A stretch of 64,000 nt of DNA from a virus. Its lineage: Duplodnaviria; Heunggongvirae; Uroviricota; Caudoviricetes. Location: positions 18,786 through 82,785 of IMG/VR virus record IMGVR_UViG_3300032307_000505; one strand, 5' to 3'. The notes below the pieces were generated by a model, which was not told where the DNA came from, ran no database searches, and saw only the letters and a list, made by a program, of their open reading frames with translations. Shown piece by piece: positions 16,700 to 62,893 of this stretch (its first letter is position 1; each line of letters starts with the position of its first letter). The position numbers were made by a program, and so were the translations under genes.

Positions 16700-16756
16700 A
16701 TCAAAGGGTTTTTAAATTAAAAACGATTAACCTATACATCGTGAGGTGTTGATAAA

Positions 16757-18493: not shown

Positions 18494-18511
18494 TATTTTA
18501 ATCTATTTCTG

Positions 18512-18598: not shown

Positions 18599-18674
18599 AT
18601 TTTGTAGGATATCGCTTAACCTACGATGTTGATATCATTACACACCTTCGATATTACTATCAGCGATTTTTTTG

Positions 18675-18746: not shown

Positions 18747-18803
18747 ATTTTGATGTCTTTCCATCAGTCATCCCTATTATTTGGTAAGGGTGGAACATCC
18801 TTG

Positions 18804-18918
18804 TAGTCAGTGTAGGATTTGAACCTACATTTTCAACAAAGGCCTTTATTGAAAAACTTACACTGTTTTTATAGAGTGGTGTCGTCCCACAGTAGCGTCT
18901 ACCAATTCCGCCAACTGA
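18804..18918 (-). tRNA. over-length (about 115 nt) class-II tRNA-like gene, Tyr-like anticodon loop
   Basis: Canonical class-II 5' end GGTCAGT-TG-GCGGAATTGGTAGACGC (as in E. coli Leu/Tyr) and T-arm GTAGG-TTCAAAT-CCTAC with matching 3' acceptor ACTGACT. About 25 extra nt lie between the D-arm and a candidate anticodon arm AAACA-GTGTAAG-TTTTT (GTA). The variable hairpin is 22 nt. Confidence 0.35.
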
Positions 18919-19021
18919 CCAATTTGAGGTTGAGAAAACCTCTGTATTGTAAGAACTGTGTACGGGTCATTCTTCTTTTCGCCCCGTATAGTATTCCCTT
19001 TCTCACCGGGAACAACACATT

Positions 19022-19225
19022 TTACTTCCATTGAGTTTTTCGGTTATACTTCCAAGTTTTGTAACTTCTGTATTTTATTGATGGGTGACCTTTTTTGAAA
19101 TTTAATCCCTCATCCCAATACATTGGAAATTCAAACTTTAACCAAATTACTCGGTAATCTTTTGAACAAGTCGCCTTGTTCAGTTTCATTCTGTTTGTGT
19201 TTACACTCATAATCTCTGAGTCCAT
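19022..19225 (-). CDS. hypothetical small protein
   Basis: 67-aa ORF between tRNA genes; weak. Confidence 0.3.
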   Translation of the reverse strand: MDSEIMSVNTNRMKLNKATCSKDYRVIWLKFEFPMYWDEGLNFKKGHPSIKYRSYKTWKYNRKTQWK

Positions 19226-19261
19226 TGTTTAGTGGACCTCAAAGATTGTCTAATACTTTTT

Positions 19262-19519
19262 TCATAACCGTAATTTATAAACTCGTTTATATTCGTCCAA
19301 CGCTGACTTCAGATTCTCAATACATTCTCTGTAATTTACATCATCACCTAAATTAAACCTTTCATTTTCTTGTTCTCGTTTGAATAGAACTTTTAACGAA
19401 TTATCAATGTTGGATAAAATGTCCAAGTAAATCAACTCTTTGTCTTTGGATTTCTTTAAATCAAATTTCAAATCTACAATTAGACCTTCTAATTCTTCAA
19501 TTTTTTCATTTTCATCCAT
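19262..19519 (-). CDS. hypothetical small protein
   Basis: 85-aa ORF between tRNA genes. Confidence 0.4.
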   Translation of the reverse strand: MDENEKIEELEGLIVDLKFDLKKSKDKELIYLDILSNIDNSLKVLFKREQENERFNLGDDVNYRECIENLKSALDEYKRVYKLRL

Positions 19520-19533
19520 AACAATTAAATTTG

Positions 19534-19606
19534 GGTGACTAAGGAGAATCGAACTCCCATTTACAGAACCACAATCTATCGTGTTAACCGTTACACTATA
19601 GCCACC
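19534..19606 (-). tRNA. tRNA-His (anticodon GTG) with G-1
   Basis: Extra 5' G(-1) opposite discriminator C73, acceptor GTGGCTA/TAGTCAC, anticodon arm ATAGA-TTGTGGT-TCTGT, T-arm GGGAG-TTCGATT-CTCCT. Confidence 0.7.
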
Positions 19607-19714
19607 ATATTTAAACCTATCAATGTGGGTTTGAGATGTACCCTTTTCAACCCGCTTTCACACCCATCACTCCTAAAGAGCTGTCAGTATCGGATACCAC
19701 ATTTAAGGTTTTTG

Positions 19715-19786
19715 TACTCTAGCAAGGAATTGAACCTTGTTCTCATTCTTATCAGGAATGTGTGCTAACCATTCTACTACAAGAGC
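19715..19786 (-). tRNA. second tRNA-Ile(GAT)-like gene with one acceptor mismatch
   Basis: Anticodon arm CATTC-CTGATAA-GAATG, T-arm CAAGG-TTCAATT-CCTTG, acceptor GCTCTTG/CTAGAGT with a T6:T67 mismatch. Confidence 0.45.
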
Positions 19787-19863
19787 AATTTTACCCCACT
19801 TCACCGGGTTAATGGACCGGATGCCATATGGGAGTGGGGGTTTCCTGTTATATCAGGACTCCG

Positions 19864-19936
19864 TGGTATCGGTTGGAATCGAACCAACGACACCTTGGTC
19901 TTCAACCAAGTGCTCTACCGACTGAGCTACGATACC
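19864..19936 (-). tRNA. tRNA-Phe (anticodon GAA)
   Basis: Acceptor GGTATCG/CGATACC, D-arm AGCTCAGTCGGTAGAGC, anticodon arm CTTGG-TTGAAGA-CCAAG, T-arm GTTGG-TTCGATT-CCAAC. Confidence 0.7.
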
Positions 19937-19996
19937 GGCTCCTGTATACCTTTGCAAAGGTGGTGGTAGTACAGACACTATAATTCCACTATTCTG

Positions 19997-20068
19997 CTCT
20001 CCCGGGAGGACTCGAACCTCCATAAATTGATTAACAGTCAACCGTAATAACCTTTATACGACAGAAGA
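19997..20068 (-). tRNA. tRNA-Asn (anticodon GTT)
   Basis: Acceptor TCTTCTG/CGGGAGA (two G:U), discriminator G, anticodon arm GTTGA-CTGTTAA-TCAAT, T-arm GGAGG-TTCGAGT-CCTCC. Confidence 0.6.
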
Positions 20069-20197
20069 ATTTTTGACTACTACTTAGACTCTTCCGTTCC
20101 GTAATAGTAGTCCAAGGCGTTACGCACCCATCTAGTAACTTTACTTCTCTTGAGTCCGGGTAAGGCCTTACCAACTCAGGGGTTGTTTCCTTGTTTG

Positions 20198-20270
20198 TGG
20201 GTCCTAAGAGAATTGAACTCTTTCCTTATGTTCTTCAGACATACGTACAGACCACTTATACCAAAGACCC
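20198..20270 (-). tRNA. second GAA-anticodon tRNA (Phe-like)
   Basis: Acceptor GGGTCTT/AGGACCC, anticodon arm TATGT-CTGAAGA-ACATA, T-arm AAGAG-TTCAATT-CTCTT. Confidence 0.5.
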
Positions 20271-20408
20271 AAATATGATAATGTTGGAGTACCCATCTCG
20301 CTCCAATCTTAACTGCTTATTCGTAGTTTTACGAGGCCTCGGCAGGGGGTGCAGAATTCTTGAACCTATCTTGGATTGTCGACATCCGAGAGATAGAGAA
20401 AACCATTA

Positions 20409-21056
20409 TCATTTTATTTTTCTACCTAACCTCCAACCGTTAGGTATGTTATCACCTTTAAATATTTTTTTATTCTCAACATCATTAGTAATCCAACAAG
20501 TACCATATTGAGAGTTATTTTTACCTTTTTGATTTATTGAACTTTTTTTACCAATAAGTTTTTTACTACTTTCTTTATGTTTTTTACCGTTCCAATCCGA
20601 CTTGAAATTTTTATATTTTTCAGGATTTGTTTTTAACCTCAGTAATTGATTTTCTGAATGTTTTTTACGTAAGTTTTCTGTAAACAATAAATCAGTTTTT
20701 CTCAATTCCTTTTGTTTTAAAATTCCAGCCTTTGAACATTTTAACATATGTTCTTTATTTAAAAACCCACCATTACCACCTTCTTTAAGGTTCATACATT
20801 TCCCATCACTAATTAGTTCTTTGTTTACTATTTCTTTCTCTCTAAGAATCAATTTTTCTCTATTTGGTAGATATTCAAGTATTTCTTTTGTGTGGTTTTC
20901 AACCCCGTATTTCCTAATACTATGTCTTAACATTGTTCCACTCCCCATATAACCATCCTCAATATTAGTTGTGGAGTGCATCCCAACATACCATCTTCCC
21001 GTTACATTACAAGTTGTTTTGTAAATGTAATGTATGTTTGATTTTTTTCTTGCCAT
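20409..21056 (-). CDS. GIY-YIG homing endonuclease
   Basis: N-terminal IHYIYKTTCNVTGRWYVGMHS...YMGSG is the GIY-YIG module; C-terminal Lys-rich DNA-binding-like tail; sits inside the tRNA island. Confidence 0.7.
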   Translation of the reverse strand: MARKKSNIHYIYKTTCNVTGRWYVGMHSTTNIEDGYMGSGTMLRHSIRKYGVENHTKEILEYLPNREKLILREKEIVNKELISDGKCMNLKEGGNGGFLNKEHMLKCSKAGILKQKELRKTDLLFTENLRKKHSENQLLRLKTNPEKYKNFKSDWNGKKHKESSKKLIGKKSSINQKGKNNSQYGTCWITNDVENKKIFKGDNIPNGWRLGRKIK

Positions 21057-21115
21057 TTCAGTTTCCTTTAATAATAAATATCTCAGAAAACTGAAAAGTA
21101 CAAAAAAGTTTATGG

Positions 21116-21196
21116 TGGAAAGTAGTGGACTCGAACCACTCCCGTGAGGACCTGATTTACAGTCAGGTTGCCGTATCCGAACGACTTTTACTTTCC
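21116..21196 (-). tRNA. tRNA-Tyr (anticodon GTA), CCA encoded
   Basis: Acceptor GGAAAGT/ACTTTCC perfect, discriminator A + genomic CCA, anticodon arm CCTGA-CTGTAAA-TCAGG, class-II variable arm, T-arm AGTGG-TTCGAGT-CCACT. Confidence 0.7.
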
Positions 21197-21452
21197 AATT
21201 TTTGTACCTCGTGATGGTTATGCTCCACCTCCATTTGTATGTAAAACAAATACGCTCCTATTACGCCAACGAGGCTGGTGGATGAATTATTTTTTTTATA
21301 GTAGAATTCGTCAACCTCAAAACTACTTTGTACCGAGAAATGGTAACGCTCCATTCTAAAGTCAGATATGAGCCGTCTTTGGTCCTTGACCTCTCGGCAT
21401 TTTGGTGGACATAGATTCATCATCTATTCTTGGGTTTCCACCGAACCCGTTG
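21197..21452. other. GC-enriched non-coding spacer with an internal repeat, function unknown
   Basis: No credible ORF (track ORFs here overlap tRNAs). Two related units at about 21207..21262 and 21337..21370 (tttgtacc..atggtta.gctcca..). Confidence 0.3.
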
Positions 21453-21524
21453 AGGTGATAGTAGGATTCGAACCCACGTAACAGATTTTGCAGACCTGTG
21501 CCTAAGCCACTCGACCATATCACC
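21453..21524 (-). tRNA. tRNA-Cys (anticodon GCA)
   Basis: Acceptor GGTGATA/TATCACC, discriminator T, anticodon arm CAGGT-CTGCAAA-ATCTG, T-arm GTGGG-TTCGAAT-CCTAC. Confidence 0.65.
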
Positions 21525-21531
21525 ATTTTTG

Positions 21532-21603
21532 TTACCCCTAATGGAATCGAACCACTCCCGCATGGACCAAAACCATGTGTACTAACCGATATACGAAGGG
21601 GCA
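21532..21603 (-). tRNA. tRNA-Gln (anticodon TTG)
   Basis: Acceptor TGCCCCT/AGGGGTA, anticodon arm CATGG-TTTTGGT-CCATG, T-arm AGTGG-TTCGATT-CCATT. Confidence 0.6.
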
Positions 21604-21609
21604 AAGTTG

Positions 21610-21697
21610 CGGAAGGAGTGGGACTCGAACCCACACGTGTGTTACCACCAACGGTTTTCAAGACCGCGACCCGTAGACCAACTTGGCTTACCCTTCC
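21610..21697 (-). tRNA. tRNA-Ser (anticodon TGA)
   Basis: Acceptor GGAAGGG/TCCTTCC, discriminator G, anticodon arm GCGGT-CTTGAAA-ACCGT, long variable arm, T-arm GTGGG-TTCGAGT-CCCAC. Confidence 0.65.
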
Positions 21698-24613: not shown

Positions 24614-26278
24614 ATGAGAGTATTAGGATTTTCGGTAGGTCACGACAAAGGTGCGGTTATCATAGAAAACGGAAAAGTAGTTGTTGGGATTACCCAAGAA
24701 AGACTTTCAAGGATAAAACACGACGGTGCATATCAAGGGGGATTAATTCCCGTTGAATCCATAAACTATTGTTTAAACGCTTTGGGAATAACTTATCATG
24801 ATATCAATTTATTTGTATATAGTACAACAGAAATTGTTGATGATGTTGATTCTCAATTTTTTAGTAGATATAGTGGGTTAAATAGAAAAAAATTAAAGTT
24901 TTTACCTCATCATTTAGCCCACGCGTATTCTACTTTTTTTAGTTCAGGATTTGAAGAATCCGCAGTTATTGTTGCGGATGCGTCAGGTAGTATTTTGAGT
25001 TATAAAAACAAATTACATAAATGGTACGATGTAGATAGAACAGAATTAGACCCTGAAGAAGATTGGACCGAAGGTATTTCATTATTTCATTTTACAAAGA
25101 ATAACTATAATGAAGTATACAAAAAATGGATTAAATATCCGGTTCCAATTGATACTGATGAAGGTGTTTCGGTTGGTACTGTTTATTCCACAGGTTCTCT
25201 TCAATTAATTTACGAACCAAACGAACATACGTGGCCTGCGGGTAAATTAATGGGATTGGCGTCTTACGCGGATAAATCTATTGTTGACGAAGCTCCTGAA
25301 TATGTACAAGAATTAGATAATGATATTTTTATACCAAATAACACAATTTACCCAAAAGTAACTTGGCAATCAGATTTCTTTTCAAAATCGTGTGTTGCAG
25401 GAATTTATCAAAGAGAACAAGAACGTGCGTCATTAATTTTAGCAAAAATTGCCAAAAATTTAACAAAATCAAAAAATGTTTGTGTCGCGGGAGGGTCATT
25501 CTTAAATTGTAATTCAAACGAAATTATTTTAAATTCAGGTTTATATGATAATTGTTATTTCTTAGCTCCAAGTGATGATAGTGGGATTCCATTGGGATGT
25601 GCTTGGTATGCGTATCAACAACTTACAGATATTGTTTCCGTTGAACCAATGTCTCCGTATTTTGGTAAAAAATATTCAAGACAAGAAATTATAACTGCAA
25701 TTAATCATAACCCTCATTTAAATGTTATTGAATACCAAGATGAAGATACTTTAATTAAAGAAGTAACACATTGGTTAACACAAAATAGAGTTATTGGTTG
25801 GTTCCAAGGTGGTTCTGAAATTGGTCCAAGAGCATTAGGTAATCGTTCAATATTGGCATCCCCAATTCAAAAATGGATGACAGGTCATATTAATGGAGAT
25901 ATTAAACGAAGAGAATGGTATCGTCCTTTTGCACCTGCGGTTTTATTTGACCATCAATCAGATATTTTTGAATCTGATGTTTATTCACCTCATATGTTAG
26001 TAACAACAACCGTAAAAGAAGAATGGAGAAATAAAATCCCTGCAGTTACTCATGTGGATAATTCGGCTAGACATCAATCGGTTACTAAAGAAAATAATCC
26101 AAGGTTTTATTCATTAATTAATGAATTTTATAACCAAACAGGTGTACCAGTATTACTTAACACAAGTTTTAATGGACCTCACGAACCAATTGTTGAGACC
26201 CCTCAAGAGGCAATTAATACATTTATTTCAAACAAACTTGACATATTAGTCATTGATAATTTTATTATAATCAAGTAA
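24614..26278 (+). CDS. NodU/CmcH-family carbamoyltransferase (copy 1)
   Basis: N-terminus MRVLGFSVGHDKGAVIIENGKVVVGITQERLSRIKHDG matches the conserved carbamoyltransferase N-terminal domain; HHLAHAYS and the C-terminal domain are also present; 554 aa. Confidence 0.75.
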   Translation: MRVLGFSVGHDKGAVIIENGKVVVGITQERLSRIKHDGAYQGGLIPVESINYCLNALGITYHDINLFVYSTTEIVDDVDSQFFSRYSGLNRKKLKFLPHHLAHAYSTFFSSGFEESAVIVADASGSILSYKNKLHKWYDVDRTELDPEEDWTEGISLFHFTKNNYNEVYKKWIKYPVPIDTDEGVSVGTVYSTGSLQLIYEPNEHTWPAGKLMGLASYADKSIVDEAPEYVQELDNDIFIPNNTIYPKVTWQSDFFSKSCVAGIYQREQERASLILAKIAKNLTKSKNVCVAGGSFLNCNSNEIILNSGLYDNCYFLAPSDDSGIPLGCAWYAYQQLTDIVSVEPMSPYFGKKYSRQEIITAINHNPHLNVIEYQDEDTLIKEVTHWLTQNRVIGWFQGGSEIGPRALGNRSILASPIQKWMTGHINGDIKRREWYRPFAPAVLFDHQSDIFESDVYSPHMLVTTTVKEEWRNKIPAVTHVDNSARHQSVTKENNPRFYSLINEFYNQTGVPVLLNTSFNGPHEPIVETPQEAINTFISNKLDILVIDNFIIIK

Positions 26279-26281: not shown

Positions 26282-27871
26282 ATGAGTACAATTTATGGAT
26301 TCTTTACCGGGTCACATAGTCCGTCGATTGCGTTAGTTAAAGATGGTAAAATAACATTTTGTATTGAAGAGGAGAGATTAACTCGTATAAAATCCGGAGA
26401 TAATTACGACATTAATTGTGAATTATCTTGTGTTGAAGCGGAAAACTTTACCGGATTAAAAATAACCGATGCTGATTATCGAATATTTGCAAATCCAACA
26501 CCTGACGCATTCGCTCGTAGAATCACCAATAATAACTACGAAAAAGTTAGTCACCATACTGCACACGCATATGGGGCATATTATACGAGCGGTATGAAAG
26601 GAAAATCCATTACAATCACATACGATGGTGGAGGGGAAAGTACCGTAATGAAAGTTTATCTGTGTGATGATGGGAAAATGAGTTTAATACAAAGTCACCC
26701 ATTAGCGTCATTTGGTAGTTTATCACATGTTTGGGGTTTTAGTACCGCATCAATGAAAGGATATGACCAATATGGCGAAGGTGTGTGGAAAATGTGTAAA
26801 GATGAAGGAAAATTAATGGGAATGGGTCCAAATGGATATTATGATAAAAAAATTTATAAAATGTTATCATCTGTAATTAATTATAAAAATTTTAGATTCT
26901 ATCCATCCGCATCATCAAGTAAAACTAGATTCTTGGGTGATATGTTGAAAATAAATGGTTATTTTGACACCCAAGAAAAAATGGAAATTTATTCCTATAA
27001 CCTACAAAAAATAACTGAGGATTTATTTCTAACATTTATTAACGATTTACATAATTTATACCCCGAATATAAACAACTTTGTTTTGGAGGTGGATTATTC
27101 GCAAATGTTAAAATGAATCAAAAAATTAACGAGCTTGATTGGGTTGATGAAATCTATATTTACCCCCCAATGGGTGATGAAGGTTTATCGTTGGGTGCTT
27201 GTATTCATAAAGCGGTTGAGTTAGGTGAAATTACAGAACCATTTGAATTTAATGATGTTTATTTTGGAAAATCATATAATAATGATGAAATTTATGAAAT
27301 ATCCAAAAATTATAATTTCACAAGAAAAGAATATATCCCAAGTGAAATTGCAAAAAACATCAATGAAGGAGAAATTATTGGTTGGTTCCAATCCGGTTCA
27401 GAATATGGACCAAGAGCTCTTGGGGCAAGAAGTATTTTGGTTAGACCAACAGAAGTCTCAACACATAAAGTTTTGAACCAACGATTAAATCGATATGACA
27501 CAATGCCATTCGCTCCAATTATCATGGAAGAATATTTTGACAATGTATTTACACCTTCAAAATCAAAATATACATCAGAGTTTATGACTCTATGTTATAA
27601 TACAAATGAGGAATGGATTGATAGAATTCCATCAGTAATTCAAAAATCAGATAAAACCGCAAGACCTCAAATTGTTAAACATTCAAAAATTCCTAAATTT
27701 TGGGGGATATTAAATGAATATCATAAATTATCGGGAATCCCATTATTGTTGAATACCTCATTTAATTCTCATAACCAACCTATTATAGAAAACCCACAAC
27801 AAGCATTTGAATCATTAAAACTTGGAGTGATTGATAAATTAATTATTGAAGATTATGTATATTTCTCTTAA
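26282..27871 (+). CDS. NodU/CmcH-family carbamoyltransferase (copy 2, divergent paralog)
   Basis: MSTIYGFFTGSHSPSIALVKDGKITFCIEEERLTRIKSGDNY, HHTAHAYGAY; same domain order as copy 1; 529 aa. Confidence 0.7.
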   Translation: MSTIYGFFTGSHSPSIALVKDGKITFCIEEERLTRIKSGDNYDINCELSCVEAENFTGLKITDADYRIFANPTPDAFARRITNNNYEKVSHHTAHAYGAYYTSGMKGKSITITYDGGGESTVMKVYLCDDGKMSLIQSHPLASFGSLSHVWGFSTASMKGYDQYGEGVWKMCKDEGKLMGMGPNGYYDKKIYKMLSSVINYKNFRFYPSASSSKTRFLGDMLKINGYFDTQEKMEIYSYNLQKITEDLFLTFINDLHNLYPEYKQLCFGGGLFANVKMNQKINELDWVDEIYIYPPMGDEGLSLGACIHKAVELGEITEPFEFNDVYFGKSYNNDEIYEISKNYNFTRKEYIPSEIAKNINEGEIIGWFQSGSEYGPRALGARSILVRPTEVSTHKVLNQRLNRYDTMPFAPIIMEEYFDNVFTPSKSKYTSEFMTLCYNTNEEWIDRIPSVIQKSDKTARPQIVKHSKIPKFWGILNEYHKLSGIPLLLNTSFNSHNQPIIENPQQAFESLKLGVIDKLIIEDYVYFS

Positions 27872-51186: not shown

Positions 51187-51645
51187 TTATTGTTGTTGTA
51201 AACTACGATAATACTTAATCATGTTTTCACAATGTCTAATTAACCAATCTTCAACTAAAGGTATTTTTTTTAGGAAATCTAATTCATACTGATAACACAA
51301 AATCTCCTCAACCCTTTCATCTAAAAATATGTTATTATTCCTATAATATAAATGTTTTGATTCATGAATTATTATTGCAGATAAATTATTAATATTACCT
51401 GATTGAATGTCTTGTTTAGATATCAATATAACATCATTACCTTCAGTGGTCGAAAACTTATTATTCCAAAACCCGATTCGTTTGCAATGTTTAAGAACTA
51501 CGTTGTACTTAGATGAGTCAACTTTTTGAATCACTTCCAAACTTTTTTCAACATTCTTTTTCCACCCTTCTCCAACATCGTCAATGACTATTTGTGAAAA
51601 CGATTGAATGGAAAATAACAACGTTAATAATATGATAATTCTCAT
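51187..51645 (-). CDS. secreted protein with HExxH motif
   Basis: Signal peptide MRIIILLTLLFSIQSFSQ; IIHESKHL (HExxH). Confidence 0.4.
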   Translation of the reverse strand: MRIIILLTLLFSIQSFSQIVIDDVGEGWKKNVEKSLEVIQKVDSSKYNVVLKHCKRIGFWNNKFSTTEGNDVILISKQDIQSGNINNLSAIIIHESKHLYYRNNNIFLDERVEEILCYQYELDFLKKIPLVEDWLIRHCENMIKYYRSLQQQ

Positions 51646-51733
51646 GTTTTTTTATAAATAAATACCATAAATAAGGTGCCGAACTTTAATAAGAATATTT
51701 ATAGGTAATAAATTACCAAGATATTATTAAACT

Positions 51734-53617
51734 ATGAAAAAACTTTTTATGGTGTTGTCATTCCTTGTAATGACATCGCTGGGTTATTCCCAAATTTGTC
51801 CGACACCGACAACTACCGGAGTTTTTGTTACATTAGACGCGACCTATCAATTAGCACCGGCATCCGCAGGTAATACTGAAGTAGGGTTATGTTTTTTTAA
51901 CAACACTACGGAGTTAGTTACGGCTGTTCAGTTTCGAGTGTTTTATGATACCGCAGCTTTCACATCAGTGTCTTCTGTTGTATCGTCAAATACATCGTTT
52001 CCTCAATATATTCAATTTCAGGATAGTCCTGCTAATGGATATGTTACGATTACTCTAACTTATACAGGTAATGATTCCAATTTTGAATTATCAGATGGGT
52101 CATTTGTAAAATTAAATTTAGTACACTCAGCAAATTTCGCGAGTTTGTCGTCTGTTCAACCCATGACATTTAGTGGTGTTCAAACATTCCCACAAACTGC
52201 AACAAAACAAAATGGTTCTGATTACTCTTTAAATTTACAAAACTTTGGTGGAGCATTTTTACCTCAACTATTTTCGTTTAGTGGTACATTCACTAACGTA
52301 ACAGGAACGGGGTCAAAATTAATTCCGGTTATTTTAGAGAAAAAATTAATGACATCTTCGACTTGGGTTCAAGCGTCAACAACACAAACAAATAACGATG
52401 GTGTTTTCACATTTACGGATGTACCATTAGACGTTACAAGTTATGACGTTCGTATTAGAGTACAAGGTGAATCACTATCAATTGCGAATATCATTTCAAC
52501 ATCTGACTCACAAAAAATCAACAGATTTGTTTTAGGTCAAGATACTCCGACAGGATTTGATTTCTATTCATCTGATGTTAATGGTGACAACAACATATCA
52601 ATTTCTGATGTATATGGTGTGTTTGGTAGAGTATCAGGAAGATTTAGTTCTTGGCCTAATACGGTTAAAGACGTTAAATTCTTCTCAGATTCAGAATACG
52701 CTTCTATTAATGGTGCAACATCGTCTTTACAATCAACAATCCCTGGAGTAACAAATCTTGTTTACAATATTTTACCGGGTACAACAACAGTAACTTTCTA
52801 TGTATTAGTTAAAGGAGATGCTAATGGTACCGGATTCAACATGGCTCGTATGACACCAATTGAAATTGTAAACCCATTAAATGCACCATCAAATATCATT
52901 GACGTAACAACAACTTATGACAACCCATCATTACAAACAATTGAATTAAACTATCCAAGTTTAACTGTAAATGAAAATAGTCAAGTTGATGTTCCTGTTC
53001 TTGTAAAAACAAATGGTGTTCAATTAGGTTCTCTACAACTAGCATTAAACTACAATAGTACTCTATTAGATTTTAGAGGTGTTAGAGCTGAGAATAAAGT
53101 TAGTGGATGGATAACTTATGTTAACACAAATGATAATATTGTTGAGTGGGGTGGTTATGACCCGACAAAAAATACAAAATTATTAAATGACAACGAATTA
53201 GCGTTCACACTACAATTCACGGCAAAAGAGATTCAAACTCAGTGGGGAGTAAGTCCTTTATATGTTACAAAAAAATTCTCAGGAAATTCAATTGCTAAAG
53301 ATTTGAAGATAATACCTACAAATGGAATTATTCAAATCATGAGAGTGATGAGACCAACTGAATTGGGTTATATGACAACATATCCAAACCCAACCGATGA
53401 TAATATTACTGTTCAGTTTACAGTAGAAAAAGAAGGTAATGTTTGGTTATCACTATATGACTTGGGTGGTAGAGAAATTAAAACAATTGTTCAAAATGAT
53501 TTAAATCCTGGAGAACACAGATACAGTACAAATGTTGGTTACCTTCCTTCAGGGACTTACATAGTTACTCTTAAAAAAGGTACGGAAACACAATCTAATA
53601 AGATTATCCGTAAATAA
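51734..53617 (+). CDS. large secreted protein with T9SS type-A C-terminal sorting domain
   Basis: Signal peptide MKKLFMVLSFLVMTSLGYSQ. C-terminal 80 aa (YPNPTDDNITVQF...GNVWLSLYDLGGREI...LPSGTYIVTLKKG...KIIRK) fit the T9SS CTD pattern. Body Thr/Ser/Val/Asn-rich. Confidence 0.65.
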   Translation: MKKLFMVLSFLVMTSLGYSQICPTPTTTGVFVTLDATYQLAPASAGNTEVGLCFFNNTTELVTAVQFRVFYDTAAFTSVSSVVSSNTSFPQYIQFQDSPANGYVTITLTYTGNDSNFELSDGSFVKLNLVHSANFASLSSVQPMTFSGVQTFPQTATKQNGSDYSLNLQNFGGAFLPQLFSFSGTFTNVTGTGSKLIPVILEKKLMTSSTWVQASTTQTNNDGVFTFTDVPLDVTSYDVRIRVQGESLSIANIISTSDSQKINRFVLGQDTPTGFDFYSSDVNGDNNISISDVYGVFGRVSGRFSSWPNTVKDVKFFSDSEYASINGATSSLQSTIPGVTNLVYNILPGTTTVTFYVLVKGDANGTGFNMARMTPIEIVNPLNAPSNIIDVTTTYDNPSLQTIELNYPSLTVNENSQVDVPVLVKTNGVQLGSLQLALNYNSTLLDFRGVRAENKVSGWITYVNTNDNIVEWGGYDPTKNTKLLNDNELAFTLQFTAKEIQTQWGVSPLYVTKKFSGNSIAKDLKIIPTNGIIQIMRVMRPTELGYMTTYPNPTDDNITVQFTVEKEGNVWLSLYDLGGREIKTIVQNDLNPGEHRYSTNVGYLPSGTYIVTLKKGTETQSNKIIRK

Positions 53618-53684
53618 TTTATGGTGTCACAATTCGTGACACCGAAGCCTATAGAAGGAAATAAACAATTAAAATTAAATTAAA

Positions 53685-54023
53685 ATGTCAGAAGAAACAC
53701 AAGAAACACAAAATGATGGTACTTGGTCAGGATTAAAGAAAACTATAATTGGTACACTTACCACAGTTATTGGTGGTGGTGGTATATGGTTATCAACACA
53801 ATTATTTGGAGGTCATAGTGATGAAGAAGAAACTAAAACAGAACAAGTTGCACAACCTGCCGCGGCACCTGTAGTTATCAATCTACAAAACAACAACACA
53901 AACCAACAAAAACAACAAAACAATGGTGGTGGTACTAACACAATCATCAGAGAAAAAGTTATAGAAAAACCTGCGGCACAACCAGCACCGGCTAAACCAA
54001 AAGAAGAGGAAGACCCTTGGTAG
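53685..54023 (+). CDS. small membrane protein, Q/N-rich
   Basis: TM helix (IIGTLTTVIGGGGIWLSTQLFGG), Gln/Asn-rich segment, Pro/Ala tail; its stop overlaps the start of the CsgG-like gene. Confidence 0.45.
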   Translation: MSEETQETQNDGTWSGLKKTIIGTLTTVIGGGGIWLSTQLFGGHSDEEETKTEQVAQPAAAPVVINLQNNNTNQQKQQNNGGGTNTIIREKVIEKPAAQPAPAKPKEEEDPW

Positions 54024-54024
54024 G

Positions 54025-54741
54025 ATGAAAAAGATAGTATTACTATTACCTTTTTTACTTTTTTCGTGCATTGGATTATCTCAAACAATCGGAACTATTA
54101 AAACTGAAGACTATAAAGCAGATTTTGAAAAAAAACAATCTTTAGATGTTGTTAGTGATTATAATGGTGATATTGTAATACCAATTCAAATATTAAAAAT
54201 TGGTATCAATGATGAGGTATATGAAATGTATCCTGAACTAAAAGATAAACGAGTAGGTCTTGGGGTTGCGAATATTGTATTAGAGTATTTGGAATCAACA
54301 GATAGGTTTAAATTCACTGAGGATAAAGCGGAAATCAAAAACAAAATGATTGCCCAAGATAAGGCATCTGATAAAGGAATTTCAAGTAATAAAATAGAAG
54401 TTAAAGGTAATGTAATTTTAGCTAACTATTTTGTTTACATAGAAGTTTATGATTTCAGTGTCTCAGAAGATGAAGTGATTAAAGGAAGTGAAGGTGCTAA
54501 AATAACTCAAACAACTCGTTTAGGTTTACAGATTAGATTTGTCGATGCCCAAACGGGGGAAGTTATAACCGGTAGTGGGTTAGGTGAGTCTAACACAGTG
54601 AAAACATCATCGTTATTAGATGATGTTGATGAAATTAAATTTAACCAATCAACAATTGGTATATCAACAAAAAAATCGTTAGAAACCGCATCTTCAAGAG
54701 TTGTTTCTAAATTAATTAAAAAAGGAGTTTTTAAAGAATAA
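54025..54741 (+). CDS. CsgG-family (curli-production/secretion channel-like) lipoprotein
   Basis: Lipoprotein signal MKKIVLLLPFLLFSC. VGLGVANIVLEYLESTDRFKFTEDKAEIKNKM and LGLQIRFVDAQTGEVITGSGLGESNTV align with remembered E. coli CsgG segments SATAMLVTALKDSRWFIPLERQGLQNLL and AVNLRVVNVSTGEILSSVNTSKTI. Confidence 0.55.
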   Translation: MKKIVLLLPFLLFSCIGLSQTIGTIKTEDYKADFEKKQSLDVVSDYNGDIVIPIQILKIGINDEVYEMYPELKDKRVGLGVANIVLEYLESTDRFKFTEDKAEIKNKMIAQDKASDKGISSNKIEVKGNVILANYFVYIEVYDFSVSEDEVIKGSEGAKITQTTRLGLQIRFVDAQTGEVITGSGLGESNTVKTSSLLDDVDEIKFNQSTIGISTKKSLETASSRVVSKLIKKGVFKE

Positions 54742-56198
54742 TGAAGACGATATTCTCATTTTTATTTCTTATATTTACAACCATGGTATTAGGTCAAGGG
54801 TTTACATATTCGTATGCAGACCCTTGTACTTCCAAAACCAAGGAAATTTTTATTCCAAATCCATCACAAAGTGTGGTGTTATCATATAATGGGTCAGTAC
54901 AAAGTTTTACATACGCTCAACTTCAATCAGGTGCAATGGAACAATGGATAAATGAGGTAAATTCTCAAAATCCTTCAGGTCCTTGTAGTGGTGTAGGTCT
55001 TCAACTGAATACATCCGTTAACGCGACAATTGCAGCCAATAACATACAAGTATTAACTACTGTATTAACCTCAATGTCTTCAATATCATCCGCAGGTATG
55101 TCAAATGTGGAAGGTATTATTCAAGCAGATGAAAAAGTATCATCTAATAATGAAAGACAGAAGGATAAAACCAAAATAGAAAATAATGCAACAACTAATA
55201 TTAACGGAGGAAGTACAACAACTACTAACACAAATTCAGGAACTTCGCAAGGCGGGGGAAATCAAAACAATGGTTCAGGAGTTGGAAACGGAACTAATCC
55301 GCAAGGAGGAACGACTTCAAATTCAAATAACCCAACTACAACAGGAGGTCAGTCGTCTCAGTCACCTGTAACTTCCGGTAATAACCCAACACCAAATACT
55401 AATAACTCCACAACACCAAATACTAATAACTCCTCAGGTGTAAGTAATATCACAGGAGGGATTAATTCTGTCAAATTAGACAATACTGAAAAATCAGATA
55501 AAGAAAAACTTGATGACGCACAATCCTCATCATCAACAACCTCTTCATCAACTAAAAGTAAAGTTGCTGCAGTTAAAAAAGGTAGTTTAATGATGACAGG
55601 AGATATTGTGGTAATAGGAAGTGCTGCAGGAACTGACCCTTCTCAAATAAGAGTAAATACGAGTATCATTTCATCAAACACAAAAAACACATTTGCAAAA
55701 GGGGCATTAGTTAATTATACAAGTCAAGTTAACAACACGAATATCACATTATTCGCGTCATATCGTTATAAAAAATCAACAACAATTATTGCAAATTCCT
55801 CTATGATGAATTTTGATAAAGATTTTTTTAACACAACCTCTGTAATGGAGTCGTACCAAATAAAAAAAATCACCACAACCGTGGGGGTTAACTATACAAC
55901 AGGAAATTTAGGGGAATCTAAATTTCAAAGTATCTCCACATTAGGCGGTGCATTTGGTAGTTTTAATGTTAATAGAAAAATGGGTATGACAACAATGTTT
56001 GTTATCGTATATTCTCCTTTTGTATATTATTATGAGGGAATATGGTATCAATCAGGTCTATTAGCAGTTCCATTTGTTGCGGTAGATTATAAATTAACTA
56101 AAAAATTTAAACTAAACCTAAGTTTTAGTGGGGTACAACAAATAAATGACCAACCACTAAACTACCAAGTATTACTTGGAGCTAAAGCATTTTTATAA
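54741..56198 (+). CDS. secreted low-complexity (S/T/N/Q/G-rich) protein with beta-rich C-terminal region
   Basis: Signal peptide MKTIFSFLFLIFTTMVLG. About 200 aa of N/T/S/G/Q-rich repeats (TNTNSGTSQGGGNQNNGSG...). C-terminal third has alternating hydrophobic residues. Confidence 0.5.
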   Translation: MKTIFSFLFLIFTTMVLGQGFTYSYADPCTSKTKEIFIPNPSQSVVLSYNGSVQSFTYAQLQSGAMEQWINEVNSQNPSGPCSGVGLQLNTSVNATIAANNIQVLTTVLTSMSSISSAGMSNVEGIIQADEKVSSNNERQKDKTKIENNATTNINGGSTTTTNTNSGTSQGGGNQNNGSGVGNGTNPQGGTTSNSNNPTTTGGQSSQSPVTSGNNPTPNTNNSTTPNTNNSSGVSNITGGINSVKLDNTEKSDKEKLDDAQSSSSTTSSSTKSKVAAVKKGSLMMTGDIVVIGSAAGTDPSQIRVNTSIISSNTKNTFAKGALVNYTSQVNNTNITLFASYRYKKSTTIIANSSMMNFDKDFFNTTSVMESYQIKKITTTVGVNYTTGNLGESKFQSISTLGGAFGSFNVNRKMGMTTMFVIVYSPFVYYYEGIWYQSGLLAVPFVAVDYKLTKKFKLNLSFSGVQQINDQPLNYQVLLGAKAFL

Positions 56199-56200
56199 CT

Positions 56201-56986
56201 ATGAAAAAATTATTAATACTAATACCTTTATTAATTTGTGGGAATTTATTCGGTCAGCCCGCACCTCCTCCATCTAGTTCAACACCAAGTTCTACTGAAC
56301 TATTTGGAAATTCCCAAAATAATATAATTGGAGCTCAATCTAAATCATTTGGGGGTGGTTCTATAATTAAACCTAACCCTATGTTAACATCTGCCGATTT
56401 CGCATTAATTCAAAATCCAACATATGAAGATGGATGGAGACATGGTACAAGTTTAGGATGGAGTAAAATAAATGAAGGTAAAGGTTTTGGGGTTAATGCG
56501 GTTTTAACATTTGATTTAACACAACAATCCTATTCTTCTTACTATAAAAATAAAAACTTGTATTATCATTTTAATTTTGGTAAGATGGGTACTACGATTA
56601 ATTTAGGAGGTAGTGTTACTAAAATGTTTTTAACTGATAAAATAAATTTTGGAGTTCAAATAGGGTCTACGGTGCTTGAAGACCATAAATACGTTTATTT
56701 TATATTAGTCCCTTATACGGTATTAATGGCAAATAAAGAAATTAAAATATCCAACAAAATTAAATGGACTCCAGAAACATTTATAACAATATGTTCACCA
56801 TATTACGATTTAGGTTTGGGAACATTAGGAACTTCAACAACATTCAATTCAGTGGTCGGAAATTCTTTATCGGTAAACATATCAAAATCGTTTAAAATGA
56901 ATACTAATTGGAGAATGAACATAAACACAACACCGAAATTTGGTATTATGAATAATATCTTAATAGGTGGAAATTTAGATTTTTAA
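56201..56986 (+). CDS. secreted putative outer-membrane beta-barrel protein
   Basis: Signal peptide MKKLLILIPLLICGNLFG, alternating hydrophobic strands, C-terminal ...GGNLDF (terminal Phe). Confidence 0.45.
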   Translation: MKKLLILIPLLICGNLFGQPAPPPSSSTPSSTELFGNSQNNIIGAQSKSFGGGSIIKPNPMLTSADFALIQNPTYEDGWRHGTSLGWSKINEGKGFGVNAVLTFDLTQQSYSSYYKNKNLYYHFNFGKMGTTINLGGSVTKMFLTDKINFGVQIGSTVLEDHKYVYFILVPYTVLMANKEIKISNKIKWTPETFITICSPYYDLGLGTLGTSTTFNSVVGNSLSVNISKSFKMNTNWRMNINTTPKFGIMNNILIGGNLDF

Positions 56987-56988
56987 AT

Positions 56989-57435
56989 ATGAAAAAATTA
57001 TTAATTACATTATTGATGTTAGGTTCACTAACATCTTTCTCTCAAAATTGTTATACAGTTAAAGAAGTTAAAAACAATGGAGATATCGAAGGTGTTAACC
57101 CAAAAAGATTCACTTTAGGAGTTAAACAAATTACTGAAGAAATATTATCAGTTAACAATACAATATGTGAAGACGGTAAACCTGTTTCAGTATTAATAGA
57201 AAGTATTGAAGCTCCGTCAACCGGTATTTCATTAGGTCCGTTTGAAAGAAAAAGAAAAAAAACAATCGTTACTTTATTTGTTACTATGGACGGTAAAGAA
57301 CACAAAGGAGTAGGGGAATCAAATACCGATGTTAAATCGACATTCATAGAATTACAAGATGAAAACTTACCTTTTGAGAAATCAGCATTTTCTTCAGCAT
57401 TAAAAAAAGCATTACAAAACGCATTAGAACTATAA
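56989..57435 (+). CDS. small secreted protein
   Basis: Signal peptide MKKLLITLLMLGSLTSFSQ; 148 aa. Confidence 0.45.
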   Translation: MKKLLITLLMLGSLTSFSQNCYTVKEVKNNGDIEGVNPKRFTLGVKQITEEILSVNNTICEDGKPVSVLIESIEAPSTGISLGPFERKRKKTIVTLFVTMDGKEHKGVGESNTDVKSTFIELQDENLPFEKSAFSSALKKALQNALEL

Positions 57436-58410
57436 ATGACAAAGTTATTCTACATATTACTTTTATTTTCAACAATCTCATGGAGTCAAAACTTTACTTA
57501 CTCGGGGTATATCTATAACTCGGTAGGTGGTGGTGTTCAAAATATGGAAGTAAAATTGTATAAAAGAACAACACCAACCTTAAATGGTTTTACGTCTCAA
57601 AATAACTATAACGGACATTCTTACTATCGTTCAACAGGTTCAATGACTTGGACGGACGCAAGACAAGCGTGTTTAAACATGGGAGGACATTTAGTTACAG
57701 TAACTTCACCCGCTGAGAACAACTTTATATTTAATCTATGGCCAAATGGTTGGATTGGATTAACGGATGAAGTCTCGGAAGGTACTTGGAGATGGGTAAC
57801 AAATGAACCTTTTTCTTGGTCTAATTGGAACGGAGGTGAACCAAATAATGCAGGGAATGAAGATTATATTCAATTTGTGGGAGGAGGTAAATGGAATGAT
57901 TTACCTAACGTTTCTCTACCATATGTTTTGGAATTCGAATATATTGTAACATTTACGGAATGGGTATACGTAAAAAGTGTTTACACAGATTCAAATGGGA
58001 GATACTTAATTAATGAAGTTTCAAACCCTTCGGTTGAGTGGTATTTACAAATTAGTACTCCCACAACACCAACAATATTATCAAATGCCGACGCCCAACA
58101 ATCAAACACTAAAGCAATCACAAGAACATTTACAACGTTAGATTACTACAAGTTTGATGTTAACAATGACAGTAGAATCAATATTTCAGACTCATATTAT
58201 ATTTTTATGAGAAAATCTGGTCTTCTTTCATCTTGGAATGCGTCTTTACCTAACTCAAGAATTTTCACACCAAGTCAATATTCAATACTTAATTCATCTA
58301 CATCTGATTTAAGAAATTCTTACCCCGGAGTTCAAAGTTTTACAATTAATTCACCAATAAATGGTGGAAGTTCAAATTTTTATTTAATAACAACGGGTAA
58401 AAAGGACTAA
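57436..58410 (+). CDS. secreted C-type lectin domain protein
   Basis: Signal peptide, then WTDARQAC..GGHLVTVTS..E..F...WIGLTDEVSEGTWRWV...WSNWNGGEPNN...EDYIQF..GGKWND, the CTLD consensus (WIGL, EPN, WND). Confidence 0.65.
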   Translation: MTKLFYILLLFSTISWSQNFTYSGYIYNSVGGGVQNMEVKLYKRTTPTLNGFTSQNNYNGHSYYRSTGSMTWTDARQACLNMGGHLVTVTSPAENNFIFNLWPNGWIGLTDEVSEGTWRWVTNEPFSWSNWNGGEPNNAGNEDYIQFVGGGKWNDLPNVSLPYVLEFEYIVTFTEWVYVKSVYTDSNGRYLINEVSNPSVEWYLQISTPTTPTILSNADAQQSNTKAITRTFTTLDYYKFDVNNDSRINISDSYYIFMRKSGLLSSWNASLPNSRIFTPSQYSILNSSTSDLRNSYPGVQSFTINSPINGGSSNFYLITTGKKD

Positions 58411-58446: not shown

Positions 58447-59268
58447 ATGATACTAAAAAATGGCTCAAAAGGCGAAGAAGTTAAAAAACTTCAATCAAAA
58501 TTAGGGACAACACCTGATGGTGTTTTTGGTCCCGGAACTGAAAAATTGGTTAAAGAATGGCAAACCAAAAATGGATTAACATCTGACGGAATCGTTGGTG
58601 ATGGTACTTGGAAAAAAATGTTTCCGGGTGAAGTTATTAAAGAAGATGTCGTTATCCCATCAGGAGGTCCGTTTAAATTAGAAAAACTAAAAGGTCACAT
58701 CCCGGAATCCGTAATTGCTCAAATTCCTGACACTGCAAAAAAATTCAACATTACAAACCCATTAAGATTAGCACATTTCTTAGCTCAATGTGGTCATGAA
58801 TCAGGTGGATTCAAAGCAGTTTCTGAAAATGTTAACTATTCTGCGGATGGTCTTAAAAAGATATTCCCAAAATATTTTCCTGGTAACTTAGCAGAATCTT
58901 ACGCAAGAAACCCTGAAAAAATCGCATCAAAAGTGTATGGTGGAAGAATGGGTAATGGAGATGAAGCGTCAAAAGATGGTTTCAAATTCAGAGGTCGTGG
59001 TTATATCCAATTAACAGGGAAACAAAACTATACAAACTTCGCAAAATTTATCGGTGAGGACACAGTTTCAAATCCTGATTTAGTTGCAACAAAATATCCG
59101 TTGGCGTCTGCGGCATTTTTCTTTGACTCAAACAAACTTTGGTCCATTTGTGATAAAGGAGCGGATGATGCAACAGTAACTGCGGTAACTAAAAGAGTAA
59201 ATGGAGGGACTATTGGTTTACCTGATAGAATCAAACACTTCAAAGAATACTATAATCTTTTAAAGTAA
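58447..59268 (+). CDS. endolysin: PG_binding_1 domain + GH19 glycoside hydrolase domain
   Basis: N-terminal LKNGSKGEEVKKLQSKLGTTPDGVFGPGTEKLVKEWQTKNGLTSDGIVG (PG-binding repeat). Catalytic region LAHFLAQCGHESGGF and GH19 signature FRGRGYIQLTGKQNY. Confidence 0.75.
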   Translation: MILKNGSKGEEVKKLQSKLGTTPDGVFGPGTEKLVKEWQTKNGLTSDGIVGDGTWKKMFPGEVIKEDVVIPSGGPFKLEKLKGHIPESVIAQIPDTAKKFNITNPLRLAHFLAQCGHESGGFKAVSENVNYSADGLKKIFPKYFPGNLAESYARNPEKIASKVYGGRMGNGDEASKDGFKFRGRGYIQLTGKQNYTNFAKFIGEDTVSNPDLVATKYPLASAAFFFDSNKLWSICDKGADDATVTAVTKRVNGGTIGLPDRIKHFKEYYNLLK

Positions 59269-60484: not shown

Positions 60485-60679
60485 ATGTGGAAAGTTTATT
60501 TATTGATGTTTATTGTTGTTCTTGTTATATCCATTTTATGGGTTAACTCAATTACTAATATGCAAAAAAATCACCCTGATTATAAAGGGGAAGATTGGTT
60601 AAATTGGGATGAAAATGATAAATTAGATATTAATCTTTGGGATAAAGATGAAGATAGGAAAGATTATGATGAAGATTAA
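60485..60679 (+). CDS. hypothetical small membrane protein
   Basis: N-terminal TM helix then acidic tail. Confidence 0.35.
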   Translation: MWKVYLLMFIVVLVISILWVNSITNMQKNHPDYKGEDWLNWDENDKLDINLWDKDEDRKDYDED

Positions 60680-62641: not shown

Positions 62642-62893
62642 TTACTCTTCAGTTTCTTCACCTTTGTTTTTGTTAATCCATTTGTCAACCGAACCGATAC
62701 CAAATGAACCTAAAACTAACCACATAAAGGCGTTGAAGATAAACTCGTTTATTACTAGGTCTTGACCTAAATAACCTGTGACAATATCCGCAATTGCGAA
62801 TGCACTCATCATGATGAAAGCTAAAAAGCCAACAACACTTTTTTCATTAATTGAGTTACTATCATTGAATAACTCGCTAAAAAATTTTTTCAT
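62642..62893 (-). CDS. small membrane protein (holin-like topology)
   Basis: 83 aa with two hydrophobic helices and a charged C-terminus. The topology call is an inference. Confidence 0.35.
   Translation of the reverse strand: MKKFFSELFNDSNSINEKSVVGFLAFIMMSAFAIADIVTGYLGQDLVINEFIFNAFMWLVLGSFGIGSVDKWINKNKGEETEE

Follow-up and report, generated by a model that had tools for sequence, protein, structure and literature searches.

A conserved phage gene module with predicted paired CsgG-fold proteins, an outer-membrane barrel, a type IX secretion cargo and a C-type lectin

What is the role of a CsgG-like protein in a phage? This question is raised by positions 51187-58410 of a 64,000-nt window (the whole stretch of DNA analysed here, taken from the Caudoviricetes record IMGVR_UViG_3300032307_000505), where a row of genes for exported proteins leads up to an endolysin gene. 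The original prediction, which was made from the nucleotide sequence, interpreted the row as an operon for a CsgG-type secretion channel accompanied by Q/N-rich cargo, a protein with a type IX secretion system (T9SS) sorting domain and a C-type lectin. All of the open reading frames (ORFs) on which that prediction was based were confirmed. We show here that the row is a module whose genes are inherited together and which addresses one phage protein to each layer of the envelope, and that it is not a curli-type fibre-secretion system.

The core of the module consists of the genes for proteins of 627, 112, 238, 485 and 148 amino acids (aa) and a lectin gene. Among IMG/VR sequences, 171 relatives were identified and 80 loci were fetched; locus counts below are given over 82 related loci. 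The core set is present in approximately 79 of them and recurs in about 80 viral contigs of marine and freshwater origin. It is also found in an isolate phage, Flavobacterium phage vB_FspM_immuto (immuto), and TARA marine contigs have the same gene order with a CsgG-like protein 41% identical to that of the window. Because the set is retained over this range, we regard it as behaving as a unit.

The CsgG-fold protein and its minimal paralogue

The gene for the 238-aa protein is the most conserved gene of the module, and near-identical metagenomic copies of its product are labelled "CsgG" in IMG. When searched alone, however, the protein gave no CsgG match at E<=1 in Pfam and NCBIfam and no PDB sequence match at E<=10, which taken literally would speak against the predicted CsgG family assignment. 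This result was overturned by profile and fold evidence. Its family contains 252 representatives at 50% identity, and we aligned 34 diverse full-length members. The resulting profile matched PDB CsgG (E 4.6e-4), and 21 of the 34 members individually matched PF03783 (best E 3.7e-23), with LpoB matches in seven. An AlphaFold2 (AF2) model of the window protein (predicted local distance difference test score, pLDDT, 82.5) gave CsgG as the best PDB match (Foldseek E 1.2e-7, TM-score 0.55-0.60), followed by PelC, GNA1162, FlgT, HpaA and the LPHT ring. Because the family profile, the PF03783 matches of relatives and the modelled fold agree, we conclude that the 238-aa protein is a remote member of the CsgG superfamily.

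Membership in the superfamily does not make the protein a channel. In CsgG, each subunit contributes two amphipathic transmembrane (TM) beta-hairpins, TM1 and TM2, to a 36-strand barrel. We aligned the 238-aa protein with an E. coli CsgG reference sequence that is 100% identical to 3X2R. The hairpin equivalent to TM1 is 21 aa long as compared with 26 aa in CsgG, is 33% charged as compared with 19%, and has no aromatic residue where CsgG has three. The segment containing TM2 (from TGE to the helix) is shortened from 38 to 28 aa, retains one aromatic residue against five, and carries an acidic DDVDE run; the TM2 equivalent is a loop in the AF2 prediction. As judged from the alignment and the model, the channel-defining hairpins of CsgG are thus missing from the 238-aa protein, their counterparts being short and polar. 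The nearly invariant Y69-P70-E-L72 (YPEL) loop aligns with the constriction loop of CsgG (Tyr51/Asn55/Phe56), in which the Tyr-Pro is matched by Y69-P70 and the Asn-Phe pair is replaced by K/D-K-R.

The protein had also been predicted to be a lipoprotein. The window copy has a lipobox-like LLFSC sequence with Cys at residue 15, but among 49 distinct N-termini of phage orthologues, a lipobox-like motif occurs in 24 and Cys is missing altogether in 22, including that of immuto. The lipid anchor is therefore not conserved, and the lipoprotein status of the 238-aa protein is uncertain. Members of the 238-aa subfamily are also found as fusions with caspases and with Ser/Thr kinases, in the latter on the outer side of a TM helix (P0206, P0209, P0217, P0220, P0251, and P0254), and the subfamily therefore likely acts as a soluble extracytoplasmic domain. 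No member of the CsgE, CsgF, CsgA or CsgB families was found among the neighbouring genes in Pfam, NCBIfam and PHROGs searches. With the hairpins missing, the lipid anchor not conserved and the Csg partners absent, the claim of a CsgG-type channel was not supported, and "CsgG" labels in metagenomes should not be taken as a sign of curli secretion.

A second protein of the module belongs to the same fold according to profile comparison. The 148-aa protein, which had been predicted to be a small periplasmic protein, is indeed predicted to be periplasmic; its family has an invariant Cys21 and a conserved GVKQ-type motif, and alignment of this family (A6) with the 238-aa family (A1) by hhalign gave a probability of 92.9 (E 3.7e-7). 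On this evidence, we identify it as a second, minimal CsgG-fold paralogue. A match of the 148-aa family to ribosomal protein S1 (E 6e-4) was rejected as a short-motif coincidence.

We then read six bacterial contexts of distant 238-aa homologues. In five of the six, a second CsgG-like paralogue lies directly upstream of the homologue (contigs L089, L091, L092, L094, and L096). This upstream paralogue matched Pfam CsgG (2.7e-6) and the phage 148-aa family (E 2.6e-9, probability 96, and 1.8e-9). On this basis, we consider that the phage 238/148-aa pair is, by sequence, a viral derivative of an uncharacterized bacterial tandem CsgG-like system. The bacterial pair looks like an envelope system in its own right: Peptidase_C14 proteins (one with PEGA) or a TPR-transglutaminase protein flank it in three of the five contexts, and the neighbours of the pair also include C14/CHAT, an MA-clan-like HExxH protein (one context), DUF3187 proteins, and 403/419-aa proteins whose C-terminal domain is beta-rich and terminates in Phe. 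No homology was detected between the phage barrel protein described below and these bacterial neighbours (DUF3187 and the 403/419-aa Phe-ending proteins).

The linkage of the bacterial pair to caspases and kinases raises the possibility of a different role for the phage proteins, namely that they are decoys which interfere with a host envelope surveillance built on the tandem pair and its caspase or kinase effectors. The phage versions do lack an effector domain, as a decoy would. However, the tandem pair was not found in Flavobacterium genomes at the sensitivity used, the bacterial system is itself uncharacterized, and the barrel, lectin and T9SS cargo of the module would be left unexplained. 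We therefore regard a counter-defence decoy as highly improbable.

Predicted barrel, membrane tether and surface proteins

Direct hidden Markov model (HMM) searches (Pfam, NCBIfam, PHROGs) and PDB searches with the 485-, 261-, 148- and 112-aa proteins gave no family. The 485-aa protein had been predicted to be a low-complexity secreted protein and a candidate cargo of the channel. Its composition and its beta-rich C-terminus were as described, but alignment of orthologues divided it into three parts. Two invariant Cys in the conserved N-terminal domain of about 100 aa (approximately aa 20-116) are in keeping with a location in the periplasm. Next comes a hypervariable linker (aa 117-280; 67% N/T/S/G/Q), whose length among orthologues ranges from almost nothing to about 250 aa; the TARA marine homologue is a 305-aa protein without it. 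The remainder (aa 282-483, about 205 aa) is an all-beta domain of 12-13 antiparallel strands in the AF2 model (pLDDT about 70-80), in which the linker is disordered (pLDDT <35). The 50 best PDB matches of the model were almost all outer-membrane barrels, chiefly of the 12-strand class (best E 2.8e-4), with FapF, NanC, KdgM, NalP, EspP, and intimin at the top. The protein ends in ...KAFL in this phage and in ...F in the immuto clade. On the basis of the model, the 485-aa protein is thus predicted to be an outer-membrane barrel of approximately 12 strands. Because the linker varies or is absent while the flanking domains are conserved, the low-complexity region is a spacer and not an amyloid core. 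A role of the 485-aa protein as a fibre subunit or Q/N-rich cargo was accordingly rejected from its barrel fold and dispensable linker.

These results bear directly on the idea that the module is a true CsgG-type (type VIII-like) channel through which the 485-aa protein, or other products of the module, would be exported as subunits of fibres or amyloid. In both structure and profile comparisons, CsgG is indeed what the 238-aa protein matches best, the constriction-loop Tyr-Pro aligns with the YPEL motif, IMG applies the "CsgG" label, and the best PDB match of the barrel is the amyloid exporter FapF. However, the FapF match is of a generic 12-strand-barrel type, with NanC and KdgM equal to it, and the low-complexity region is missing in marine relatives. 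Together with the truncated, polar hairpins, the dispensable lipid anchor and the absence of CsgE/F/A/B-like genes, this makes a fibre-exporting channel very unlikely.

The 261-aa protein encoded next to the barrel gene combines a signal peptide and a Pro/Ser linker with a beta-rich domain whose last residues are ...GGNLDF. The protein gave no Pfam, PDB or phage match, but aligned with the 485-aa barrel family end to end and colinearly, although weakly (hhalign E 0.021). It is possibly a stand-alone paralogue of the barrel, the alignment being no more than suggestive; its gene is accessory, being present in only three of the 82 loci.

The 112-aa protein, whose gene is kept in 79 of the 82 loci, is predicted to be oriented N-in with a TM segment at approximately residues 20-43, followed by an extended E/Q/A/N/P-rich tail of about 70 aa. 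The tail is rich in Pro, Ala, Gln, and Asn without coiled coil and ends in an invariant acidic-Trp motif, EE[DE][PS]W, with W112 invariant in an alignment of 20 sequences (A7). From these features, the protein looks like an inner-membrane tether that reaches across the periplasm. In several relatives (for example, L048:8015-8998 and L010:14911-15921), we also observed a 310-336-aa protein encoded inside the module or past the endolysin gene, in which an acidic, repetitive N-terminal half rich in Ala, Gly, Val, and Glu is combined with a hydrophobic segment and a long coiled coil, and which terminates in a conserved ...NPRNWF sequence. Its gene adjoins that of a 90-aa TM and coiled-coil protein, and the aromatic end of the 310-336-aa protein is reminiscent of the tether with its invariant last Trp.

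For the surface proteins, HMM searches confirmed the earlier assignments of a T9SS sorting domain and a C-type lectin. The 627-aa protein begins with a signal peptide (MKKLFMVLSFLVMTSLGYS|Q), and continues with a cohesin-like N-terminal domain, a CarboxypepD_reg/Cna-B-like sandwich, an EF-hand "dockerin-like" segment (DVNGDNNISISD), a cohesin domain and the sorting domain. The last of these (residues 550-627) matched Por_Secre_tail PF18962 (2.9e-11, 43.9 bits, cut-off 27) and TIGR04183 (2.5e-10, 40.2 bits, cut-off 23), and Cohesin PF00963 matched in two stretches (3.3e-7, 31 bits, cut-off 24.1). By these profile matches, we assign the protein as a T9SS type-A cargo with cohesin domains. Phage genes with type-A T9SS sorting domains have a precedent in "Cryophage", where hijacking of the host T9SS was presumed and where glycoside hydrolases and a PA14 protein, encoded in variable islands, served as cargos (Bellas et al., 2020; PMC7468147). 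Thus, while we found no description of the present module in the literature available to us, as had been anticipated, the T9SS cargo as such is not new to phages.

The 324-aa protein matched Lectin_C PF00059 (3.2e-16) and C-type lectin-like domains in the PDB (down to 8.9e-24). Its carbohydrate-recognition domain (aa ~56-165) carries EPN at 135 and WND at 153 and interrupts a beta-sandwich stalk. By these matches and motifs, it is a genuine Ca-type (EPN/WND) C-type lectin on an adhesin-like stalk. The lectin ends in the same dockerin-like domain as the 627-aa protein, without a T9SS sorting domain, and 83 of 133 related proteins share the D-x-N-x-D-x-x-I-x-x-x-D motif of this domain. The immuto counterpart of the 627-aa protein is divided between two gene products, gp014, a homologue of its N-terminal part lacking the C-terminal sorting domain (CTD), and gp015, a 243-aa protein consisting of cohesin (PF00963, 36.7 bits) and CTD; the dockerin-like parts carry no CTD. 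This split is therefore compatible with a cohesin-mediated partnership. Neither the lectin nor the cohesin gene has paralogues elsewhere in the immuto genome, and decoration of the virion through shared domains was rejected for this reason.

Locus layout, phage context and linkage to the lysis genes

The features of the locus are listed in Table 1. The genes from the 627-aa cargo to the lectin form a co-oriented block of nearly abutting genes for exported proteins, as predicted. The earlier description placed seven genes in 53685..58410, where there are only six; the count becomes seven when the 627-aa gene is included. A stop/start overlap (TAATG at 54741), previously assigned to the small membrane protein, lies instead at the junction of the 238- and 485-aa genes, and the 112- and 238-aa genes are joined as TAG-g-ATG with 1 nt between them. 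The gaps after the 485-aa gene are 2, 2 and 0 nt, with 36 nt lying between the lectin and endolysin genes. All products of 51187-58410 have a hydrophobic N-terminal leader ending in a Bacteroidetes-type S/G|Q site, except for the 112-aa protein, which has the internal TM segment in its place. The endolysin has no hydrophobic N-terminus.

Table 1. Features of the module region and the adjoining endolysin gene (positions in the window)
Feature	Position	Strand	Basis
Small secreted protein, 152 aa, HExxH motif	51187..51645	-	ORF and leader
T9SS type-A cargo, 627 aa	51734..53617	+	Por_Secre_tail, TIGR04183, Cohesin
8-bp inverted repeat	53623..53643	+	Read directly in the sequence
Predicted bitopic inner-membrane protein, 112 aa	53685..54023	+	Family alignment, composition
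CsgG-fold protein, 238 aa	54025..54741	+	Profile, AF2 model, Foldseek
Predicted outer-membrane protein, 485 aa	54741..56198	+	Alignments, AF2, Foldseek
Accessory protein, 261 aa	56201..56986	+	ORF; occurrence in related loci
Predicted periplasmic minimal CsgG-fold paralogue, 148 aa	56989..57435	+	hhalign
Secreted C-type lectin, 324 aa	57436..58410	+	Lectin_C, PDB C-type lectin-like domains, motifs
GH19 (glycoside hydrolase family 19) endolysin, 273 aa, leaderless	58447..59268	+	Pfam, PHROGs

Past the 627-aa gene, 5 nt from its stop codon, is a perfect inverted repeat, GGTGTCAC aattc GTGACACC (whole: GGTGTCACaattcGTGACACC), which gives an 8-bp stem and a loop of 5 nt. It is the sole such repeat in the window, with a chance expectation of 0, and lacks a T-run. 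This hairpin could mark a transcript end or processing site that separates the cargo transcript from the downstream genes. A scan for sigma-70 promoters and terminators gave only background-level results, the sigma-70 consensus being unsuited to Bacteroidota.

Divergent from the module is the gene for a 152-aa protein with a conserved HExxH motif (IIHESKHLY); a Peptidase_M56 match over the HExxH region is weak (E 0.027). This gene co-occurs with the module in 47 of the 82 loci in either orientation. Among relatives, accessory genes inside the block vary and encode small TM proteins, Endonuclease_NS, GIY-YIG-like and coiled-coil proteins. A secreted DNA/RNA non-specific endonuclease (PF01223, 2.6e-17) is encoded within the module at L013:11565-12176, L062:12423-13010 and L083:5782-6402. 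Immuto carries a QueC gene of the 7-deazaguanine pathway, and a phage with modified DNA could therefore escape its own exported nuclease. A GIY-YIG-like gene of the homing-endonuclease type lies between the CsgG-like and barrel genes in one relative (L012:10099-10668). The lectin gene itself is found on either side of the block.

This variation may suggest that the locus is no single machine, but a collection of independently acting exported "moron" genes gathered beside a lysis cassette. Lambda bor and lom are exported morons in such a position. The coming and going of the endonuclease, TM protein, GIY-YIG-like and 261-aa genes and the switching of the lectin would fit this explanation. However, the six core genes are kept together, mostly in the same order, across marine and freshwater phages whose CsgG-like proteins have diverged to 41% identity, and their start and stop codons abut or overlap; an assembly of independent genes is thus improbable.

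The nearest deposited relative is immuto, a 160-kb myovirus of Flavobacterium sp. LMO8, whose homologue of the 238-aa protein is 74% identical and whose gp016-gp019 correspond to the genes at 53685-57435. Every core gene of immuto is annotated as "hypothetical" except for the lectin and cohesin genes. The immuto phages are the sole carriers of the module among 50,697 deposited phage genomes. They were reached only via protein-level searches, since megablast of the region against the same number of phage records gave no match. Near-identical viral contigs are present in IMG/VR; the CsgG-like protein has more than 5,000 database relatives and 171 IMG/VR loci, and the module is abundant in freshwater and marine viromes. 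In BFVD, we found one CsgG-annotated protein from an uncultured phage, and only two viral structures matched at E<1e-3.

The possibility that the row is a host genomic island, raised with the original prediction, was refuted by a scan of 185,579 bacterial and archaeal species genomes (one each). The single match was a 2.6-kb contig (NZ_JBIPPD010000340.1, L088) of a Lake Mendota Flavobacterium metagenome-assembled genome (MAG) carrying the CsgG-like gene. We consider this contig to be probably a mis-binned phage fragment, although it is a useful hint about the host. Because it is the sole match, the host-island explanation was rejected, and the module is essentially missing from bacterial genomes. 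From the closest isolate phage and the Flavobacterium MAG contig, we infer that the window derives from a large Flavobacterium phage.

The window also encodes ThyX, an RNA ligase and paired carbamoyltransferases. The latter are adjacent Nol-like paralogues at 24614-26278 and 26282-27871 on the plus strand (phrog_1601, E 4e-105 and 6e-86), and may belong to a nucleotide or glycan modification pathway. On the minus strand, 25 transfer RNA (tRNA) genes in three clusters (window positions 9532-21697) cover most amino acids, as is typical of large virulent phages, and the tRNA clusters account for GC bumps at 10-12 kb and 18-22 kb.

The predicted GH19 endolysin that follows the lectin gene was confirmed (PF00182, 2e-9; PF01471, PG_binding_1, 6.4e-12; phrog_181, 3.6e-68), and its linkage to the module gives rise to a close rival explanation. 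An endolysin of this type (o273) was found within the fetched region of 51 loci and lies within 1.5 kb of the module edge in 50 of them (median 87 bp), although at least four arrangements occur: downstream, upstream, on the opposite strand and past the HExxH gene. In several relatives, the tether and CsgG-like genes are separated by a 2-TM holin-like gene, which abuts the endolysin gene in others, and a Phage_holin_4_1 gene flanks the endolysin-side cassettes in relatives. The window homologue of the 2-TM gene (62648-62893, minus strand; 82 aa, 62% identity) is 3.4 kb from the endolysin gene on the other strand, and its product is likely a holin or antiholin. Two genes past the endolysin, 60485-60679 (plus strand) encodes a 64-aa protein that has a TM segment at its N-terminus and a tail of very acidic composition.

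From this linkage, the module may be a lysis accessory and the counterpart of spanins in Bacteroidetes phages: a bridge of tether, CsgG-fold pair and barrel would remove or destabilize the outer membrane after the endolysin has cut the wall, an EPN lectin of the GlcNAc (N-acetylglucosamine) type would bind peptidoglycan, and the nuclease and HExxH protein would aid release. To our knowledge, no spanins are known from Bacteroidota phages, and no canonical spanin was seen near the endolysin gene. The pairing of an N-in TM gene with a lipobox-bearing gene mimics the i-spanin/o-spanin layout. Nevertheless, of the features of a two-component spanin, only the TM segment and the gene adjacency are present; the tether has no coiled coil, and the candidate o-spanin is a 238-aa protein of the CsgG fold whose lipobox is missing in about half of its orthologues. 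The T9SS-exported cohesin and stalked lectins, retained in about 79 of the 82 loci, have no obvious lytic role. Moreover, in immuto and the TARA contigs the module is located behind replication genes, the annotated endolysin of immuto being approximately 6 kb downstream, and adjacency to the endolysin may be inherited synteny. In view of these points on both sides, a spanin-like lysis function is possible, but doubtful.

Possible function and comparison with known systems

PelC (with PelB) and FlgP/FlgT are lipoproteins of CsgG-like fold that form periplasmic rings beneath an outer-membrane component. By analogy, we tentatively favour the explanation that the module encodes a phage-built envelope complex that displays a lectin-cohesin coat binding host glycans. 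The module would act in the Flavobacterium envelope late in infection. The CsgG-fold pair would form soluble or outer-membrane-associated periplasmic rings, with no membrane-spanning CsgG pore, and these rings would dock beneath the phage barrel and be tied to the inner membrane by the tail of the 112-aa protein. The host T9SS would take out the cohesin-CTD protein, while the dockerin-like lectin, having no CTD, would join by piggy-backing on cohesin or through the phage platform. The infected cell, or the debris it leaves, would thereby acquire a lectin-cohesin coat. Glycan binding by this coat may mask receptors, leading to superinfection exclusion and sparing progeny from debris, and/or may cause infected cells to stick to their neighbours. 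Glycan binding is supported by the lectins of relatives, since they gain extra ConA-like domains, and a cohesin/dockerin-type partnership is supported because the cohesin-CTD protein is separate in immuto while the dockerin-like parts are CTD-less.

Several points weigh against this explanation. Ring formation, docking and the route of the lectin across the outer membrane are all inferred, and a folded, disulfide-bonded lectin would be unable to traverse a 12-strand barrel. The dockerin resemblance lacks statistical significance: the domain gave no Pfam dockerin match, and with its profile PDB dockerins were reached at no better than E 1.2-1.7. With 60% identity to that of immuto, the lectin is fairly conserved, whereas an arms race over variable glycans predicts otherwise, and an EPN lectin could bind peptidoglycan GlcNAc rather than a surface glycan. 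The tight linkage to endolysin and holin-like genes, which has resisted rearrangement, suits a lysis role at least equally well.

One proposal is common to the lectin-cohesin coat and the lysis accessory: the tether, the CsgG-fold ring pair and the barrel may together form an unrecognized phage trans-envelope machine derived from the bacterial tandem system, serving either as a spanin equivalent or as a lectin-cohesin platform working with the host T9SS. We regard this specific assembly as possible, albeit somewhat unlikely. There is nonetheless a real chance that the module represents a new type of phage envelope machine, although its parts, CsgG-fold ring proteins, outer-membrane barrels and T9SS cargo, are of known kinds. 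The module bears on how Bacteroidota phages handle the outer membrane and on the use of the host T9SS by a virulent phage to re-dress the infected cell with sugar-binding proteins, and it draws attention to a tandem pair of CsgG-like proteins in bacteria that has links to caspases, transglutaminases and kinases. Since both immuto and Flavobacterium sp. LMO8, its host, have been cultured, these questions are directly addressable.

Comparison with known systems places each part of the module. The 238-aa protein shares the alpha/beta core fold of E. coli CsgG (PDB 4UV3, 3X2R) and, in the window copy, a lipobox-like leader, an anchor that about half of the orthologues lack. It differs from CsgG in that it comes paired with a 148-aa mini-paralogue, falls below the Pfam CsgG threshold when searched alone, has a TM1 equivalent 5 aa shorter and an acidic TM2 segment 10 aa shorter, and is encoded without CsgE, CsgF, CsgA or CsgB. 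The concept of a soluble ring under the outer membrane with a separate barrel, as in PelC-PelB and FlgP/FlgT, is closer to the way in which we think the 238/148-aa pair may work. However, sequence-level membership in these families was not found, the phage locus has no polysaccharide-synthesis or flagellar genes, and the phage barrel differs from a PelB-type partner in having about 12 strands and an N-terminal domain on a disordered spacer.

The C-terminal 205 aa of the 485-aa protein match FapF, NanC/KdgM, NalP/EspP and intimin with TM-scores to target of 0.47-0.62, and the order of N-terminal domain, linker and C-terminal barrel resembles that of FapF and type V proteins. The E-values of these matches are marginal (2.8e-4 to 1e-2) and the protein has no Pfam match; neither a plug nor a linker helix was recognized.

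Among phage systems, lambda Rz/Rz1 likewise consists of an N-in TM and lipobox gene pair in or next to the lysis cassette, and, as with the receptor-masking or exclusion lipoproteins T5 Llp and lambda Bor, the products are exported envelope proteins, here those of a virulent phage. The present module differs from all of these in having at least six conserved genes, a tether devoid of coiled coil, and a lipoprotein candidate, the 238-aa protein, which is of the CsgG fold, four to five times the size and frequently unlipidated. Finally, the module and "Cryophage" (PMC7468147) are alike in encoding type-A T9SS sorting domains on a phage genome, but here the cargo is a cohesin protein that is fixed in a multi-gene envelope module together with a lectin and CsgG-fold proteins.

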